A stretch of DNA of 5,550 bases, from IMG/VR virus record IMGVR_UViG_3300045988_001679, positions 1 through 5,550 of that record; one strand, 5' to 3'. Each line of letters opens with the position of its first letter. The stretch's first letter is position 1. The translations under genes were made by a program, and so were the position numbers. Positions 1 through 5,550 of the stretch are shown piece after piece. Under the pieces are notes generated by a model. The model made no database searches. It had not been told where the DNA came from and was given only the letters and a program-made list of their open reading frames with translations. Origin of the DNA: a virus.

Positions 1-99
1 CTCCCAGATGTCCGTTTTTGATTCCGTCATTGAACGATATCCCGGGTTTGGTTGTTTCTCCGGGTGATGACACGCTTGTTGCATTGAAGTTTGCCCCAA
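1..99. repeat. Terminal redundancy: 1-99 is identical to 5452-5550. This is a circular-genome overlap (unit 5451 bp), not a biological repeat.
   Basis: Exact 99-nt identity at both window ends. The VP1 reading frame is continuous across the junction only if the sequence is circularised at this overlap. Confidence 0.9.
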
Positions 100-868
100 A
101 GTCATGTTGCAGCCGCTCTTCAAGTTTTTCTGTTTTGAACGTTGTTACAGGTGCATTTCCTGTCAGTGCAATTGTTACTTCCGGTCCTCTCTGCGGATAC
201 GGCAGACAACTTGAGAAGTAATCGTGGAATCGGCTTACAGGTAAGCACCGTCCACCTTTGTATGCGTTTTTGAGTGTTGCATCTTTATCATTTTCGTCGT
301 TGTCCTGGTAGTTTACTGTTTCATCTCCCGTTGAGTTTACTGCGGGGTTTCCGACGTTTTGGTCTCTGAAAAATTCGTTCCAGATTTTTACGTATGCTCT
401 TATCGGTAGTGCGTTGATTTCTATGTCTAGCTCTTTTCCTTTTTTAATTCTTGTTGGCACTCCCATGTAGTCAAGGATTCCGTTTGCGTATGGTAATTTT
501 TCTTCTTCGGTTTCGTCTCCTTTGATTCTGATTGTTGGAATCTTGTATGTTTTTGTTGGCATCCACGGATTATCGTCTGCTTCGCCCATGAATCGCTTGA
601 AGTTATCCCATAGGATTCTGTTCGGGCAGAAGAAGTAGTAGAAGTCGATAAATGCATCGTCAAAAACCGGGTATTTCGGTGTGGTCATTCGGATGATTGC
701 CGCTGTATCCACGCTGAAAGTATCGCCGGGTAGTACTTCGTCTACATAGAACGGAATCAGCTTGCCTGCATCGAAGGTTGTCAGAATGTTCTGGTCTCTG
801 TTGAAGCGTGTCCGGCTGACGTGTGTTTCTGGTACTTGGTTGAAGTGTCTCTCATTATTCCGGTTCAT
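1..868 (-). CDS. Major capsid protein VP1 (F-like), N-terminal 289 codons. The gene starts at ATG 868-866, runs off the left edge and continues at 5451 on the circular genome.
   Basis: Minus-strand translation from 868 gives MNRNNERHFNQVPETHVSRTRFNRDQNILTTFDAGKLIPFYVDEVLPGDTFSVDTAAIIRMTTPKYPVFDDAFIDFYYFFCPNRILWDNFKRFMGE... and later ...GGRCLPVSRFHDYFSSCLPYPQRG. These are canonical gokushovirus VP1 N-terminal motifs. The frame is open to position 1 and in phase with the 4673..5524 ORF once 1 is mapped to 5452. The start ATG overlaps the upstream gene stop as ATGA. GGAG lies 11 nt upstream. Confidence 0.93.
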   Translation of the reverse strand, partial: MNRNNERHFNQVPETHVSRTRFNRDQNILTTFDAGKLIPFYVDEVLPGDTFSVDTAAIIRMTTPKYPVFDDAFIDFYYFFCPNRILWDNFKRFMGEADDNPWMPTKTYKIPTIRIKGDETEEEKLPYANGILDYMGVPTRIKKGKELDIEINALPIRAYVKIWNEFFRDQNVGNPAVNSTGDETVNYQDNDENDKDATLKNAYKGGRCLPVSRFHDYFSSCLPYPQRGPEVTIALTGNAPVTTFKTEKLEERLQHDFGANFNATSVSSPGETTKPGISFNDGIKNGHLG

Positions 869-1257
869 TGTTCATTGTTCTCCTCTTGTTTCTTTGGTTC
901 GCTTGCTGCCTTTTCCTGCATTCGCTGCAGTTCCTTTGCGTTGGCTTGTGCTGTTGCCATCATGGCGTGATATTCGTGAATATTGGTAGGCCATTCGGTC
1001 ATATCCACGGTCTCGTCCGTTTTTGCGCTATCTACCAGACTTTTTGCAAACTGCGGGTCAAAGCTAGCCTTGCGGACGATGTTTTTGATGTCGCATTCGT
1101 CTGCGTAGCTTTCGATTTCAGCTTGAATGTCGATTGATTCTGTTTCAATCAGCTTGTTTTCTCCTTCTTTGTCTTTGCCCCAGACGTACTGTTTACGCAT
1201 TTTTTCGCCTGGATTTGAAAAGAAGGGCTCCCGCCCTTCTTCGTATCTCTTATTCAT
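865..1257 (-). CDS. 130-aa acidic protein immediately upstream of and coupled to VP1; possible VP3 internal scaffolding protein. The track gives a 149-aa version from 1314.
   Basis: ATG 1257 preceded by SD GGGAGGG (8-nt spacer) and overlapping the previous stop. Stop TGA overlaps the VP1 ATG (ATGA). Contains YADECDIKNIV, which resembles the E-C-D-I-N motif I recall from Chlamydia-phage/gokushovirus VP3 scaffold proteins. That is memory only, not verified. Confidence 0.5.
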   Translation of the reverse strand: MNKRYEEGREPFFSNPGEKMRKQYVWGKDKEGENKLIETESIDIQAEIESYADECDIKNIVRKASFDPQFAKSLVDSAKTDETVDMTEWPTNIHEYHAMMATAQANAKELQRMQEKAASEPKKQEENNEQ

Positions 1258-1492
1258 GCGTTTTGCCCTCCCAGACTTTTTCCGGCTCGATGCTTCTGAA
1301 TTCGCCGGTTTCATCGTTGAAGTTTGCGATGTGGTAGCCTTTGTAGTCTTCGGGCGACTGGCCTAGAAACGTTTTTTCATCTTTTTCCATGATTTCGCAC
1401 ATTCGTGCAAAGGTCTTGTCGTTTTTGCTCTCGCCGATGTAGCAGTAGCACTTTGCTACGCTGTCGTAGATGCCATAGTATCCGTGAATCAT
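1250..1492 (-). CDS. Hypothetical protein, 80 aa (ORFan)
   Basis: ATG 1492 preceded by SD AAAGGAG (8-nt spacer). Stop TAA 1252-1250 overlaps the next gene start region (ATGAATAA). No recognisable motif. Confidence 0.55.
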   Translation of the reverse strand: MIHGYYGIYDSVAKCYCYIGESKNDKTFARMCEIMEKDEKTFLGQSPEDYKGYHIANFNDETGEFRSIEPEKVWEGKTHE

Positions 1493-1590
1493 CTTTTTTT
1501 CTCCTTTACAGTCTGATGCCGCCTCGCATGGGTTTCTGGCTTAAGTTGATACTCTTTGTTTTGCGTGCCGTCACGTTGAACATTCGTTTG

Positions 1591-1836
1591 TCAGTGCGTA
1601 CTGGCATTTTCTGCCTGTGCTTCATGTGTGTACTCCCTTCTGAGCAGCTCTAGTTCGATGTCATTTGCCCATTTCTTCATAATCCAGATTCGGTCAATGA
1701 TTTTTTTTGCTTCTTCTGAGCTGGAGACTTTTTTTATCATCTTGTATCCAGCTTCTATCTGTTTGTATAGTCTTTCGGCTTCTAGCCTAATATCTTCTTC
1801 GGGCTGGTCTCGTACGTTCCATGTTTTGTGCATCAT
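1591..1836 (-). CDS. Hypothetical protein, 81 aa (ORFan, predicted helical, charged)
   Basis: ATG start with SD AAGGAG 6 nt upstream. Same strand as all the recognisable genes. No recognisable motif. Confidence 0.55.
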   Translation of the reverse strand: MMHKTWNVRDQPEEDIRLEAERLYKQIEAGYKMIKKVSSSEEAKKIIDRIWIMKKWANDIELELLRREYTHEAQAENASTH

Positions 1837-1839
1837 GCT

Positions 1840-1944
1840 TTACTCCTTTTCTTTCAGGATGTGATAGATCTCGTCGAGCTTTTCCAGAACTTTTTTGATC
1901 ATCTGGATTGCTTCCCGCAGATCTTTGACCTTAATCAATGCCAT
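1840..1944 (-). CDS. Micro-ORF, 34 aa (MALIKVKDLREAIQMIKKVLEKLDEIYHILKEKE). Predicted amphipathic helix. Not in the supplied ORF track.
   Basis: ATG 1944 sits 3 nt after the peptidase stop (TAA 1950-1948), with SD AAAGGGGGTG 6 nt upstream. Its own last codons (AAGGAG TAA) form the SD for the next gene (ATG 1836). Fits the coupled gene chain. Confidence 0.45.
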   Translation of the reverse strand: MALIKVKDLREAIQMIKKVLEKLDEIYHILKEKE

Positions 1945-1947
1945 TGG

Positions 1948-2331
1948 TTACACCCCCTTTCTGTATCTATTTTCACGCACATCCACGTGTACGAAGTTGG
2001 TGTATCTGATTATTCCGCCTTGTTCCATGATGCTATCTGCGTACTTTGCAACTTCTTTACTTGAGCGTCCTTTTACTACGATATCGGCGGCCATTCCTTT
2101 GCAATGGTATGAATTTGGTGTTCCACCTACTTTTGTATTCCAGCTCGGTGTGCGGTATCCGCTGTTGATGATGACCGGAGTGTCGAAGTGGTTTCTGATT
2201 GTTTCCAAGATTTCGAGTAGTTTAGGTGCCCACAAGAATTCTTTTGTTTTGTCTTTGCATCTAAACTCTTCAGCTTTGAAGTGTTGCGTTAATCGGTCGT
2301 TGTTTGTTTGGTTTAAGATTGCTGTACTCAT
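1948..2331 (-). CDS. Peptidase M15 family zinc D,D-/L,D-peptidase (Peptidase_M15_3 / VanY-YcbK-like); putative peptidoglycan hydrolase (lysis). 127 aa from ATG 2331. The alternative TTG start at 2412 gives 154 aa.
   Basis: Motifs SGYRTPSWNTKVGGTPNSYHCKGMAADI and FVHVDV match the H...D...H zinc-ligand signature of the M15 family. ATG 2331 is preceded by SD AAGAGGTGG (7-nt spacer) and by the promoter at 2382-2354, which lies inside the longer TTG-initiated ORF. No signal peptide or TM segment. Confidence 0.85.
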   Translation of the reverse strand: MSTAILNQTNNDRLTQHFKAEEFRCKDKTKEFLWAPKLLEILETIRNHFDTPVIINSGYRTPSWNTKVGGTPNSYHCKGMAADIVVKGRSSKEVAKYADSIMEQGGIIRYTNFVHVDVRENRYRKGV

Positions 2332-2353
2332 TTTTTTACCACCTCTTGTTTTT

Positions 2354-2400
2354 TTTATATCATACCCGGCTTGATAAGTCAAGGATTTTTGAAAAAAATT
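2354..2400 (-). promoter_or_regulatory. Sigma70-type promoter on the minus strand: -35 TTGACT (2382-2377), 17-nt spacer, extended -10 TGaTATAAA (2362-2354), AT-rich UP-like tract (2400-2383). Predicted TSS about 2347.
   Basis: Read directly on the minus strand: AATTTTTTTCAAAAATCC TTGACT tatcaagccgggtatga TATAAA aaaaacAAGAGGTGGtaaaaaaATG. Near-consensus hexamers, 17-bp spacing, TGn extended -10, then SD and the ATG of the peptidase. Confidence 0.6.
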
Positions 2401-2433
2401 TTTGACGTTCAAGTCGGATGCCCGCGGCAGGCG

Positions 2434-2536
2434 TTTTCAACATTTTCAACATACTTTTCAACATTTCAACATTGTTAAACTTTAGCATAATAGAGTGTTT
2501 CAACAATTCAACAAGTTTTCAACAAATCTTTCAACA
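2434..2536. repeat. Eight same-orientation copies of TTCAACA (mostly TTTTCAACA) in two clusters of four (2436-2471 and 2499-2536). Start-to-start spacings are 9, 12, 8, 34, 8, 11 and 12 bp, with phased T-tracts. Iteron-like array / curved DNA upstream of the promoter.
   Basis: Copies begin at 2436, 2445, 2457, 2465, 2499, 2507, 2518 and 2530. There is a degenerate ninth copy (TTCAACT) at 2584. TTTTCAACA differs by one base from the DnaA-box consensus TTWTNCACA. Confidence 0.7.
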
Positions 2537-2635
2537 TTTCTTTTCAGCTGTTTTTTACGCTCTGTCGTTATAAAATAGTAGTTTTCAACTTTTCCACATA
2601 CTCTACTACTACGACTACAACAAGTTATATTATAA

Positions 2636-2684
2636 TACGTGCGCACGCGTGCGCGTGTACTTTTCGCGTGTACGTGTGTGCGCG
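2636..2684. repeat. GC-rich strictly alternating pyrimidine/purine tracts (25 nt at 2636-2660; 20 nt at 2665-2684) with a perfect 14-bp palindrome GCGCACGCGTGCGC (2641-2654) and the direct repeat CGCGTGTAC x2. Z-DNA / cruciform-prone element.
   Basis: Sequence tacgtgcgcacgcgtgcgcgtgtac ttttcgcgtgtacgtgtgtgcgcg. This is the only GC-rich island inside an AT-rich non-coding region. Confidence 0.7.
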
Positions 2685-2704
2685 ATTAGAATAATTAGTT
2701 AAAT
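2677..2704. other. Possible dif-like XerC/XerD recombination motif (TGTGCGCGATT AGAATA ATTAGTTAAAT)
   Basis: Partial match to E. coli dif GGTGCGCATAA TGTATA TTATGTTAAAT (GTGCGC in the left arm, GTTAAAT at the right end; about 18/28 ungapped). Gokushovirus prophages of Enterobacteria are reported to integrate at dif. Confidence 0.3.
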
Positions 2705-2744
2705 AGTAATAATTATCACTTTTCACGTGAGACTAAACAATAAT

Positions 2745-2776
2745 AGCCCAGTACCTTACTTGATAGGTACTGGGCT
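2745..2776 (-). terminator. Perfect 11-bp stem / 10-nt loop hairpin (AGCCCAGTACC ... GGTACTGGGCT), 12 nt downstream of the Rep stop. Likely intrinsic terminator closing the genome-long transcription unit; could also be an ssDNA-form priming/ori hairpin.
   Basis: 2745-2755 is the exact reverse complement of 2766-2776. In mRNA sense it is followed by AUUAUUGUUU (U-rich). It sits between the Rep stop (2791-2789) and the AT-rich non-coding region. Confidence 0.5.
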
Positions 2777-2788
2777 AGGTGACACCAA

Positions 2789-3808
2789 TTATAAAATACC
2801 ACGCTTTTTCGTTTGTTTTTTGGTGACACGTTCTTTTGTCTCTAGGATCGTTTTATAGTCCTTTCCTTCCAGCTGTAGACGCTTCTGCTCTATTGCGTTT
2901 TTCTGCCTGTTTTGTTTGATTCTCCACAGTCTTTGTGGGTTTTCTGCTTCCATCTGCTTTTCGTAGTATCTAGGAATTTGTGCTTGTTTTCCGTTGCTGC
3001 ATTGAATGTATCCTTGTTTCCAAATTTCTGCCTTGTGCTCTTGGTAGTAATGGTCTCCAAGGCCCGGCTTTAGACTCATGCAAGCAAATGGCTTTGTTTG
3101 TCCCAACTCGTAGTATGCATTGGCTTTTTTTCCGTCTATTTCGTACATTTTTTTTGTAACATACCCTGCAACATATCTATAGGTTTCTGGAACGGCTTGC
3201 GCTATCTGTATTTGACCCATGCCCCACAGGTCTTTCAACCACTCGCTGGTGTAGTATCCATTGTGGTGAATTTTGTACAAGTTTTTTAGGTCTGTCGGCT
3301 CCCAACCATATAGTATCATGTGATAGTGCGGTCTCGCTGTTTGTTCTCCGTATTCACCCGCTACAAAATAGCGTAATTTGCTCCTGTAAGCCTTTCTGAG
3401 ACGTTTTAAGAATTTTTGAATATCCTCATATAGCAGAATTTGTACGCTGTCTGGGCGCTTCTCTCCCGGCTTCCATGTGTATTGTACTTTTCGCATGATT
3501 TCGCCTGTCTTTACTATCATGCCTGGTACGTGGTCATCGTCATAAGTTAGTGTGATAAACCATACCTGCTCTTTTGGGTAATCTCTTGCTTCCAGCTCGA
3601 TTCGTGTTGTCCAGTCCTCTCGCTGCCTGATTCTGCATCCGATGCATTGTCCGCATGGTATCAACATAACTTTCGGATTATACATCAAATCTTCATATCT
3701 TAGCTGTTTCCCGCTTAACTGAGAAATGCGGGCGAGTGAATACACCCGCCCGCTCACTTCCTTGTTGTTTGGGTTGTACAGCCTGATTAGTGGCTTGTAA
3801 CAACTCAC
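2789..3808 (-). CDS. VP4 rolling-circle replication initiator (HUH Rep), about 339 aa. Start GTG 3808-3806 overlaps the VP2 stop (GTGA). The track version extended to 3979 is less likely.
   Basis: HUH endonuclease motifs in order: WFITLTYDD (motif I), [10 protein letters not shown] (motif II, HxH), [11 protein letters not shown] (motif III, catalytic Tyr). N-terminal Cys cluster SCYKPL...[10 protein letters not shown]. Excellent SD AGGAGGAGGAAG plus a 6-nt A spacer before GTG 3808. The 3979 GTG has no RBS, and the first in-frame ATG is at 3685. Confidence 0.9.
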
Positions 3809-4650
3809 TTTTTTCTTCCTCCTCCTGCGTGGAATTTTCCTCCGCCCGCGTTGAATGGAATTGTTTTTTCTGTATCTTCCATCTGTTCGTATGTTTTTAG
3901 CAGGTCTTTTGTTAGCTCGTATGGGCTTGTATAGCCTTTTGACATTTGGGTTCCTACGGCTTCGGAGAGCTGATACCACGTTGATTTTGCAATGCTTTTA
4001 TTGTAGTAGCTGTTTGGCACGTTGCCGCTTAGCGCAGATACTCCCAGAGCGCTTGATGTTGGCATTCCCATGCTTGCGCCTGTGATTGTTGCACCTGCAC
4101 CTCCCGGTGTGCTTGCTCCGCCCTGTGCGTATGCCAAAATCGGGTTTAGTCCTGCTTTTCGCATATCTTCTACGGCTCTTTGATATGCTGTGTTGCTCAT
4201 TCTTTCTTGGAAATTGCGGTTTGCTAGCGCTTCTGCGCTGTTGTATTGCATTGCGGCGTTTTGTTCGATGTGGTTGTAAATACCCTGTTGGATTGCCCCC
4301 AGCGTGTTATAGCCCATCTGCATGAGCATGTTTTGTCGGTTTGTTTTGCTTTGGAATGCGTTTTGCCCGCCCTGCCAGTTGTAGTATTGACTGAGATATT
4401 TCATTATCTGTTCGTCATTCGTGCCGCCTTCTGCAACGCTTAGTGATGTTCCACCGCCCTTTCCTGTGCTTACGTTGCTTCCTTGGCTGATGTTTTCGCT
4501 TTTTTGGCCGTACATTGATGATAGTCCACCGCCCAGCAGTTGCATCGCTCCGGTTATGACTGCTGGGTTCTGTGCTAACCATGCTCCTGCTTTGGCTGCT
4601 CCACTTGCAAGCATTGCTCCTAGTCCTGCCATTTTAAATATAGCCCGCAT
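3805..4650 (-). CDS. VP2 minor capsid / DNA pilot protein (281 aa)
   Basis: Gly/Ala/Gln-rich protein with the conserved motif [22 protein letters not shown] typical of gokushovirus VP2. Located directly downstream of VP1. Strong SD AAGGAGGAA lies 12 nt before ATG 4650, 22 nt after the VP1 stop. C-terminal [13 protein letters not shown]. Confidence 0.85.
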
Positions 4651-4672
4651 TTCTGCGGGCTTCCTCCTTTCT

Positions 4673-5550
4673 TTACAGTTTTTCCAGACCCGGCACGCTG
4701 TACAGCGGCATGCAGCGAGTGGTTTTGTTCATTACCCTGATTGCCCCGAAGAACTGCGGTTCGTTCTGGACGATTAAAGTTCTTGCGATTTCTGTTTTGT
4801 CCTCGTTCATCCACTCTTGGCTCAGTGTCGGCACGGTGCTGTAGTTGTCCGCATAGTGCCAGAAGTCTAGCGTGCCTTCTGCATTGCTCCGCATTTTACC
4901 GCTTACCCGGTTAGGCTTCATTCGGTAGTCTGCCCAGGCTTCCTGGTAGCCGAACGTTTCATTATCTGTGCTTGTGCCGGTCAGCATGATTTCTTTCTTT
5001 TTGACAGGCTGTTCGCCCAGATTTGCAAACTGCGGGAAGTAGTAGTCCAGTCTGTCACTGCGGCTCCAGAATCGTTCCAAGCCTTGCTGATAGCTGTGAT
5101 TATGGCGAACACACATAACACCGATAACAAACCCGTGTTCCTCAAAGCTTTTTGTGAAGCTGCTTTCGTTAATCGGTGTGACAGACATTGCACCGGTTTC
5201 ACCGATAGGCGTATCGTCTGCGGTCTGCTGCCCGCTGGTCTGTACGATTTGGTTGATGTTTACATGATAGCGTCCGCCACCCAGATACTCCGGCACCTGA
5301 ACCGTTTTATCGCTGATGCTTACGCCAAACAGTGTTCGTACCTGTTCACGGTATCGGCTGCCTCCACGGGCCAGTGCTTCATAGTAGTGCTGAACTGCAA
5401 ATGCCTGACGCAGCTGGTTGATTGTTGCGGCTTCGATTCCCGTTAGGTCTGCTCCCAGATGTCCGTTTTTGATTCCGTCATTGAACGATATCCCGGGTTT
5501 GGTTGTTTCTCCGGGTGATGACACGCTTGTTGCATTGAAGTTTGCCCCAA
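4673..5550 (-). CDS. Major capsid protein VP1, C-terminal part (stop TAA at 4675-4673). Bases 5452-5550 duplicate 1-99. The full gene is 1647 nt / 548 aa across the junction.
   Basis: Track ORF 4673..5524 (the GTG 'start' is an internal Val codon). Conserved gokushovirus VP1 C-terminal blocks: [107 protein letters not shown]. Confidence 0.93.
5452..5550. repeat. Second copy of the terminal redundancy (same bases as 1-99)
   Basis: See the 1-99 feature. Confidence 0.9.

Follow-up and report, generated by a model that had tools for sequence, protein, structure and literature searches.

What is the long non-coding gap beside the replication gene of a gut gokushovirus for? The stretch of DNA analysed here (IMG/VR record IMGVR_UViG_3300045988_001679, positions 1 to 5,550; hereafter the window) is a complete circular gokushovirus (microvirus) genome of 5,451 nt, with positions 1-99 repeating 5452-5550 and all of its genes on the minus strand. 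Between the gene for the rolling-circle initiator VP4 and the next operon, on the peptidase M15 gene side, lies a large non-coding gap (2413-2788), which an initial annotation had described as a candidate replication origin. The features listed there are for the most part real, although their coordinates are off by 1-3 nt, and the region does contain an origin-like module with repeats, an initiator box, triplets and an unwinding element. The kind of origin, however, is a different one: on balance we read 2434-2637 as a viral copy or mimic of that part of the host chromosomal origin (oriC) which lies next to dnaN; it would recruit the host initiator DnaA to the viral replicative form. The predicted parts of this module are the following.

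2434-2471, plus strand: DnaA-box cluster I, four co-oriented boxes (TTTTCAACA at 2434-2442, 2443-2451 and 2455-2463; ATTTCAACA at 2463-2471).
2497-2505, 2505-2513, 2516-2524 and 2528-2536, plus strand: DnaA-box cluster II, four co-oriented boxes.
2537-2581, plus strand: spacer between cluster II and the unwinding unit, poorly conserved in the conservation profile, with a semi-conserved ACG...CGTTA(A/T)AAA.
2582-2598, plus strand: proximal pair of tandem boxes, TTTTCAACT at 2582-2590 and TTTTCCACA at 2590-2598, which overlap and start 8 nt apart.
2599-2602, plus strand: TACT, the 4-nt spacer that separates box pair and triplets.
2603-2623, minus strand: DnaA-trio array, reading CTA CTA CTA CGA CTA CAA CAA on the plus strand.
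2624-2637, either strand: AT-rich duplex-unwinding element GTTATATTATAATA.

Firstly, the repeats are far denser than chance would give. The heptamer TTCAACA occurs in eight copies on the plus strand within 2436-2536, against about one expected across the whole window, and the window total of nine was reached in none of 200 shuffles. The two clusters of four described at first thus stand, while the helical-turn spacing attributed to them holds only as a mean of about one turn, the individual intervals (9, 12, 8 and 8, 11, 12) being irregular. The 9-mer TTTTCCACA does fit the DnaA-box consensus TTWTNCACA, as had been pointed out, and has one mismatch to TTATCCACA, but its true place is 2590-2598 rather than 2591-2599 and alone it is not significant (75 of 200 shuffles). 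The box TTTTCAACT beside it had been overlooked. Orientation is identical in all ten boxes of the module (TTTTCAACA and TTTTCCACA types), and the other nine match TTTTCAACA, the variant of Oscillospirales origins described below.

Secondly, the box pair leads into an ordered array of triplets. The combination of a box end with CTACTACTA no more than 16 nt further on is found once in the window and in 0 of 200 shuffles. The CTA/TAC run, previously placed at 2601-2620, in fact spans 2603-2623 and reads 3'-GAT GAT GAT GCT GAT GTT GTT-5' on the minus strand, with three perfect GAT triplets first. On the plus strand CTACTACTA offers two consecutive TnnT pairs, the criterion, applied here at the sequence level only, for a DnaD recognition element in Firmicutes. 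The TACT spacer of the window is not GC-rich; other phages have CCCT or CTCC at this place. Past the triplets, 13 of 13 positions at 2625-2637 are A or T, and relatives keep this A/T composition while the sequence varies. The stretch 2618-2638 had been likened to the phiX174 origin core, a likeness no better than that of shuffled sequence; what lies there is an AT-rich unwinding stretch, variable past CAACAA. Judged by sequence, the ten co-oriented boxes, tandem pair, 4-nt spacer, trios and AT-only element constitute a complete 'basal unwinding system'.

The identity of the boxes follows from comparison with relatives and with bacterial origins. The logo of 1,031 box instances from 119 unique module sequences reads t-T-T-T-C-A(86%)/C(14%)-A-C-A, which is the DnaA-box consensus TTWTNCACA with A replacing C at position 6, and one phage clade carries the canonical TTATCCACA in the cluster II slot held elsewhere by TTTTCAACA. 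Cluster II boxes keep fixed offsets from the triplet core (-107, -99, -88 and -76) in 62-81 of the 119 sequences. Host origins were sought in a set of bacterial genomes, one for each species, by looking for three TTCAACA close together, a scan with much noise. Four of the loci returned have boxes between dnaA and dnaN: two from Oscillospiraceae (L155, L204), one from Ruminococcus (L172) and one from an uncultured member of the Clostridiales (L177), with the flanking genes confirmed by Pfam (Bac_DnaA and Bac_DnaA_C for dnaA, three beta-clamp domains for dnaN). All four hold dense TTTTCAACA arrays with some TTTTCCACA, and each array ends just before dnaN in a terminal unit of the phage type (for example ...CACAgTTTCAACAtaccCTACTACTACTACTA and then AT-rich sequence; TTTTCAACAgTTTCAACAccccCTACTACTACTACTA in L155 and TTTTCCACAgTTTCAACAtaccCTACTACTACTACTA in L172, both followed by AT-rich sequence), with a 4-nt spacer that reads TACC in Ruminococcus and CCCC in Oscillospiraceae. 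Moreover the whole phage module is colinear with about 200 nt of these dnaA-dnaN origins at 65-67% identity. The presence of TTTTCAACA arrays in dnaA-dnaN origins identifies TTTTCAACA as the DnaA-box variant of these bacteria and the module as a miniature oriC; the repeats taken at first for iterons are thus not iterons of a phage Rep protein, and are instead the box variant of the Oscillospirales chromosomal origin.

The most likely host of the phage is accordingly an Oscillospirales bacterium of the gut, from Oscillospiraceae or Ruminococcus (class Clostridia). This agrees with CRISPR-based work predicting that gut Gokushoviridae infect Clostridiales (PMC10159846). The nearest GenBank relatives of the window are gokushoviruses from faeces of pig, human and monkey. 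A prophage or other host link was also sought through the genome contigs, and gokushovirus proteins were encoded in none of the 120 genome loci. Further TTTTCAACA/TTTTCCACA clusters, often in both orientations, lie away from dnaA-dnaN on Oscillospiraceae and Ruminococcaceae contigs (L144, L156, L164, L169, L170), and may represent additional DnaA-box clusters or mobile elements of another kind.

Conservation in related gokushovirus genomes had been named as the test of the region, and for the module it is very strong. Its approximately 205 bases (2434-2637) are found at 72-86% nucleotide identity in about 65 GenBank gokushoviruses, some of which match the window only in the module (no coding region detectable by megablast), and more than 119 IMG/VR contigs of 4-6 kb carry it, as recovered with a 22-nt pattern from the triplet region. 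In the upstream 175 nt, which exclude the search pattern, identity to the window is still 75-79% in clades whose VP4 and VP1 are 38-50% and 45-56% identical; no protein of these phages is conserved as well as the module. The trio array is its best-conserved part, also in loci not selected for it. In all, more than 120 gokushovirus genomes have the module at 75-89% nucleotide identity, also where VP4 identity is down to 38-50%, and conservation of this extent, reaching into deep clades, rules out junk.

The module is also mobile and indifferent to orientation. Among 119 genomes, 92 have it in the orientation of the window, where the strand that reads TTCAACA is antisense to the genes, and 27 have it inverted. 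Of the inverted cases 23 form a distant clade with the module between VP2 and VP4, and the remaining four (L016, L058, L086, L119) belong to the window's own clade and have it in the non-coding region after VP4. In these four the flanks ACGCGCACAGCGCTAAAAA...GGCGCTAAAGCGCC are otherwise typical of a clade with about 40% VP4 identity; distant-clade flanks beside an inverted module in close relatives point to recombination of non-coding cassettes between distant gokushoviruses. In MG945388 the module is flipped while the hairpin downstream of VP4 (see below) remains in gene orientation. Since inversion and relocation are tolerated, action on the packaged single strand is unlikely and action on double-stranded DNA more likely, and the occurrence in either orientation at two positions argues against a strand-specific nick site within the module. 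The idea that module orientation sets the packaged strand was considered separately and found no support, as base skews (whole-genome and third-codon-position) follow the genes in both orientation groups.

If 2434-2637 is such an oriC copy or mimic, its action can be outlined as follows. The incoming single strand would be converted to the double-stranded replicative form, whereupon host DnaA-ATP would fill the box array. From the proximal box pair DnaA would oligomerise onto the 3'-GAT-5' strand (the minus strand of the window) and melt the AT-rich element 2624-2637, which adjoins the GC-rich tract. The exposed CTA/TnnT strand together with DnaA would recruit the helicase-loading machinery of the host, so that the replicative form might be replicated in a DnaA-dependent and orientation-independent manner alongside VP4-driven rolling-circle synthesis.

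Several points weigh against this interpretation. DnaA binding, unwinding and replisome loading are steps that we infer from sequence, and microviruses are not known to require DnaA, VP4-driven rolling-circle replication being thought sufficient. The incC half is not enough for autonomous replication of oriC plasmids of the B. subtilis type, so the 205-bp module may not be a self-sufficient origin. Within the trio array, triplets 4, 6 and 7 (GCT, GTT, GTT) violate the middle-adenine rule, and CTACAACAA is invariant in the phages and absent from host origins, which suggests an additional phage-specific constraint outside the model. Only 4 of the 120 genome loci returned by the host scan were dnaA-dnaN origins, and TTTTCAACA-type arrays with CTA triplets and AT-rich sequence occur also in an Anaerolineae metagenome-assembled genome (MAG; L147) and a Mesoaciditoga MAG (L246), both from unrelated phyla; as the box type is not unique to Oscillospirales, the host assignment rests also on the gut habitat of the phages. 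Finally, a scan for units of canonical TTATCCACA plus CTACTACTA gave no further microviruses that would extend the model to other hosts; its output consisted of chance matches in coding DNA, a microvirus hairpin and one contig.

These last two loci and one reference genome have box-like sequences of their own. The contig, a 7.3-kb IMG/VR sequence (L367), has five TTATCCACA boxes followed by CTACTACTA and shows no match to the microvirus proteins of the window. The hairpin, in a 5.9-kb microvirus (L412), has TTATCCACA in its stem and CTACTACTA in its loop. In Chp2 (L251) two reverse-oriented, DnaA-box-like TGTGCAAAA repeats 12 nt apart lie at 2820-2841, about 80 nt upstream of the intergenic hairpin, and no trios follow them.

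A wider and decidedly speculative extension is that these abundant gut gokushoviruses spend part of the life cycle as mini-chromosomes that depend on DnaA. Were it true, the replicative form would use a captured host-origin module to fire, which might allow plasmid-like persistence synchronised with the host cell cycle (a carrier state reached with no integration) and/or provide VP4 with DnaA-melted DNA to nick at the invariant ACTTG|TTG beside the trios.

The rival explanation that survives best, though we think it unlikely, accepts the same host DnaA boxes and gives them another use. The replicative form is multicopy with ten boxes per copy, and could act as a sink or decoy that titrates host DnaA without firing as an origin, blocking or retiming initiation on the host chromosome or the expression of DnaA-regulated genes. 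Such a function is independent of orientation, as the inversions would require, and it has precedents: multicopy oriC box regions inhibit growth of B. subtilis (the source of the names incA, incB and incC), and the datA locus of E. coli titrates DnaA. A sink, however, requires boxes only. Conservation within the module is instead highest in the triplet array, the 4-nt spacer with its exact length and the AT-only stretch, which suggests that unwinding is what selection acts on.

Less probable is a hybrid origin, in which melting by DnaA would supply VP4 with single-stranded DNA and VP4 would nick in or beside the invariant CTACAACAAG / ACTTGTTGTAG and start rolling-circle synthesis. This would account for the phage-only invariance of CTACAACAA outside host origins, and it fits the requirement of HUH endonucleases for a single-stranded substrate. 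The complement ACTTGTTGTA is moreover identical over 10 nt to the intergenic hairpin loop of phiMH2K and resembles that of Chp2 (CTACTTGAT), as well as the phiX174/pC194 nick motif CTTG|AT. A 10-nt match has, however, a chance expectation of about 1 in 10, and on the gene strand of the window the motif falls on the strand that DnaA itself would cover. Inversion of the module in 27 of 119 genomes would in addition swap the displaced and the packaged strand, yet the compositional skews follow the genes in both orientation groups. If the hybrid version held, module orientation rather than gene orientation would decide the packaged strand and some microviruses would be negative-sense.

Poorer still are the prospects of transcriptional control, with the boxes binding DnaA, a known transcription factor, or another host factor such as Spo0A to regulate the adjacent late-operon promoter. 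The array does end about 50 nt upstream of a good gene-strand promoter (2354-2382), but the distance and orientation relative to the promoter vary widely among genomes, the module lies upstream of VP4 in some of them, and the triplets and AT stretch would be left unexplained. As for a Spo0A 0A-box array, the box complement TGT(T/G)GAA departs from the consensus TGNCGAA, position 4 being T or G and in none of the 1,031 boxes C.

The model of the initial annotation, in which the repeats are VP4 iterons, CAACAAGTTATATTATAATAC a phiX174-like nick site and the module the phage's own rolling-circle origin, now appears very improbable. A conserved non-coding region beside the Rep gene with repeats and an AT-rich stretch is what such an origin would look like, and gokushovirus origins are unmapped. 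The boxes, however, are invariant across VP4 identities of 38-96%, not co-varying with the protein as Rep iterons would, and are identical to those of host oriC; the phiX174 origin match is at chance level, with the sequence past CAACAA variable among relatives; and the module is found in both orientations (inverted in 27 of the 119 genomes), which a rolling-circle origin fixed to one strand would not be. That the region encodes a small protein or structured RNA, or is functionless captured host DNA, is hardly credible, since, although mechanical open reading frames (ORFs) of 48-51 aa span it, the spacing of the box clusters varies by non-triplet indels, the module region has no Rfam match and folds like its shuffles on either strand (z = -0.8 and -0.6), and functionless DNA would not be conserved in more than 120 genomes and deep clades.

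Returning to the genome around the putative oriC-like module, the remaining features of the gap and its neighbourhood are these.

2638-2688, either strand: GC-rich alternating purine/pyrimidine tract beside the unwinding element (61% GC, 86% alternation).
2689-2743, either strand: A+T-rich stretch including the 'dif-like' motif (78% A+T).
2744-2785, minus strand: strand-fixed hairpin element just after the VP4 stop codon, with a perfect 13-bp stem-loop at 2744-2777.
2789-2791, minus strand: stop codon of VP4, the rolling-circle initiator (Pfam REP_ORF2-G2P).
2354-2382, minus strand: putative sigma-70-type promoter of the peptidase-VP5-VP3-VP1 operon, from direct reading of the sequence.
2331, minus strand: ATG of the peptidase M15 gene.
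868 down to 1, then 5451 down to 4673, minus strand: VP1, the major capsid protein (Phage_F).
Elsewhere on the minus strand: VP2, VP5 and the scaffold protein VP3.

The first three of these had been recognised as a GC-rich quasi-palindrome, an AT-rich tract and a perfect hairpin, and are borne out. A similar GC-rich tract is present in relatives, where its sequence and the side of the module on which it lies vary; the fold of the window's tract as single-stranded DNA has z = -2.6, on the plus strand only. The A+T-rich stretch is a lineage-specific filler or insertion, absent or much shorter in close relatives, and in L259 part of it (AATAGTAATAATTATCACTTTTCACGTGA) is duplicated in tandem. A XerCD dif site within it, the motif reported earlier, is rejected: the match to E. 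coli dif (2677-2704) is 18/28, 12 of 60 shuffles are as good, B. subtilis dif gives no match, and close relatives either lack the stretch or do not conserve it.

The hairpin is a separate element with constraints of its own. On the gene strand it runs from GTGTCACC through a stem of 13 bp and the loop ATCAAGTA to a T-rich tail, and its fold z-scores are -5.2 and -6.6. The element starts 3 nt and the stem 11 nt after the VP4 stop codon, and with 13 pairs including 7 GC and the tail TTATTGTTTA it has the attributes of an intrinsic terminator. Covariation was judged from the stem of each single sequence, because automatic alignment put the clades out of register. In 37 distinct hairpins the stems are perfect over 11-17 bp, and they differ by clade (AGCCCAGTACCT, GTGGGCCTAATCCT, CTCAGCCAAGTA, TGGCGCAAG) while remaining perfectly complementary; GTGTCA and the loop CAAG are invariant across clades. 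Conservation of the loop is unexpected for a mere terminator and suggests an additional role. On the strand opposite the genes the loop reads TACTTGAT, which resembles the phiX174/pC194 nick motif and also the hairpin loops of Chp2 (TCTACTTGATC) and phiMH2K (CCTACTTGTTGT), where it is on the coding strand. We thus regard the hairpin as terminator-like and as a candidate VP4 recognition or nick element and, being conserved and strand-fixed, 2744-2777 appears a better candidate for the nick site than the module.

Comparison of the three hairpin loci (window 2744-2785, minus strand; Chp2, L251, 2903-2940; phiMH2K, L252, 3296-3336) shows that the loop motif CTACTTG(A/T)T lies on the coding strand in Chp2 and phiMH2K and opposite the genes in this gut group, a strand switch that raises the question of which strand is nicked by VP4, and which is packaged, in this group. 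Chp2 and the window share GGTGA(T/C)A after the hairpin on the motif strand. Third-codon-position skews over whole genomes (window, L012-L130, L251-L253) separate two gokushovirus types: in Chp2 and SpV4 T exceeds A and G exceeds C at coding-strand third positions, and in phiMH2K and the window's group A greatly exceeds T (about +0.4) and C exceeds G. Skew was rejected as a marker of polarity, because phiMH2K is skewed like this clade yet its hairpin loop with ACTTG is on the coding strand. On the gene strand CTTGAT is the second most depleted hexamer, with 0-3 copies observed where 40-53 are expected, but this avoidance was likewise rejected as evidence of a nick motif, since it is part of a general CTTGNT/TnnT depletion arising from avoidance of T at third codon positions.

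The heptamer CTTGATA occurs only twice in the genome, both times on the plus strand and in the non-coding region: at 2759-2765 in the hairpin loop, and at 2370-2376 in the spacer of the putative operon promoter. The latter copy, present in few close relatives only, is probably due to chance. The promoter itself consists of a -35 hexamer TTGACT (2382-2377), a 17-nt spacer with TGn and a -10 hexamer TATAAA (2359-2354), with the Shine-Dalgarno sequence AAGAGGTGG and then the ATG at 2331 downstream; the promoter scanner omits it because it demands T at position 6 of the -10 hexamer. Two further GC-rich hairpins lie at 4636-4660 (GCCCGCATTTCTGCGGGC, where the mechanical VP2 ORF starts, shortly past the VP1 stop codon) and at 3720-3750 (GCGGGCGGGTGTATTCACTCGCCCGC, within the 5' part of the VP4 ORF), and the sub-threshold Rfam matches that they produce (RyhB, Termite-leu) are almost certainly chance.

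The literature that we searched contains no paper linking Microviridae, gokushoviruses or microviruses with DnaA boxes, and papers describing these genomes or classifying microviruses leave their non-coding regions undiscussed. For plasmid and phage origins the presence of DnaA boxes is established; a single-stranded DNA phage with a complete DnaA-only unwinding unit copied from a host origin appears to be new. If the oriC-like reading is correct, this would be the first sign of a microvirus recruiting the chromosomal initiator of its host, and a scheme thought to rely on the endonuclease only would gain a host-dependent step of theta-like or DnaA-titrating kind. The module is a mobile cassette exchanged among distant gokushovirus clades and conserved better than any of their proteins. 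Its box variant and unit geometry could serve as a sequence-based host signature (Oscillospiraceae/Ruminococcus) for very abundant uncultured gut phages whose hosts are largely unknown, and its defined sequences make the question of the gokushovirus origin directly testable.

How does the module compare with known systems? The phiX174 origin (CAACTTG|ATATTAATAAC) is relevant in that VP4 is a homologue of the A protein and the window hairpin loop contains ACTTGATA on the plus strand. That origin, however, lies inside gene A and lacks DnaA boxes, whereas the module is not strand-fixed and has no above-chance match to it: the best match in the window to the core CAACTTGATATTAATAAC is 13/18 and lies elsewhere (4273), and 19 of 60 shuffles are as good. 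DnaA-titrating loci, such as datA of E. coli and the DnaA-box clusters of B. subtilis, share with the window box clusters outside oriC that bind many DnaA molecules, but they lack the trio array and unwinding element. P1 oriR, F, pSC101, RK2 and R6K resemble the window as mobile replicons whose origins contain boxes that recruit host DnaA. In these replicons their own Rep proteins and iterons melt the DNA, with one to few DnaA boxes and no DnaA-trios, unlike the window, which has a whole predicted DnaA-only unwinding unit and whose Rep is a rolling-circle endonuclease. The four host dnaA-dnaN origins have the same TTTTCAACA/TTTTCCACA boxes and terminal unit as the module but are longer, carry boxes in both orientations where the phage boxes have one orientation only, and are without the phage-invariant CTACAACAA.

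Among studied systems the counterpart is the basal unwinding system of B. subtilis oriC, which comprises DnaA-box 6 and 7, DnaA-trios and an AT-rich region (Richardson 2016; Pelliciari 2021 and 2023). The scaffold used experimentally is ACTTATCCACA-AATCCACA-GGCC-CTACTATTACTTCTACTA (supplement of PMC8287927), and its counterpart in the window is TTTTCAACT-TTTCCACA-TACT-CTACTACTACGACTA, followed by AT-only sequence. Common to both are a head-to-tail box pair with starts 8 nt apart (box 6/7 of B. subtilis being TTATCCACA/AATCCACA), a 4-nt spacer followed by CTA-type triplets (3'-GAT-5' on the other strand), TnnT pairs opposite the trios and an AT-rich stretch beyond. The predicted element of the window differs in lying in a 5.4-kb phage genome and not beside dnaA/dnaN, and in having A at box position 6, a spacer that is not GC-rich and distal triplets that deviate (CGA, CAA, CAA). 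Published searches for unwinding systems allow a box up to 2 mismatches to TTATCCACA (or to a species-specific box), set its distance from the first trio at 0-16 bp and ask for 3 or more trios. In such systems the spacer after the proximal box is about 4 bp, the trios are consecutive with the consensus 3'-GAT-5' on the strand leading away from the boxes, and a second head-to-tail box immediately upstream is the commonest arrangement. The window has the box, a tandem second box, the spacer, at least 3 central-adenine trios, the AT stretch and the TnnT pairs, and it departs from the published pattern in location, the element lying between VP4 and the peptidase M15 gene of a microvirus rather than beside dnaA/dnaN, which makes it an oriC-like module and not a chromosomal oriC.

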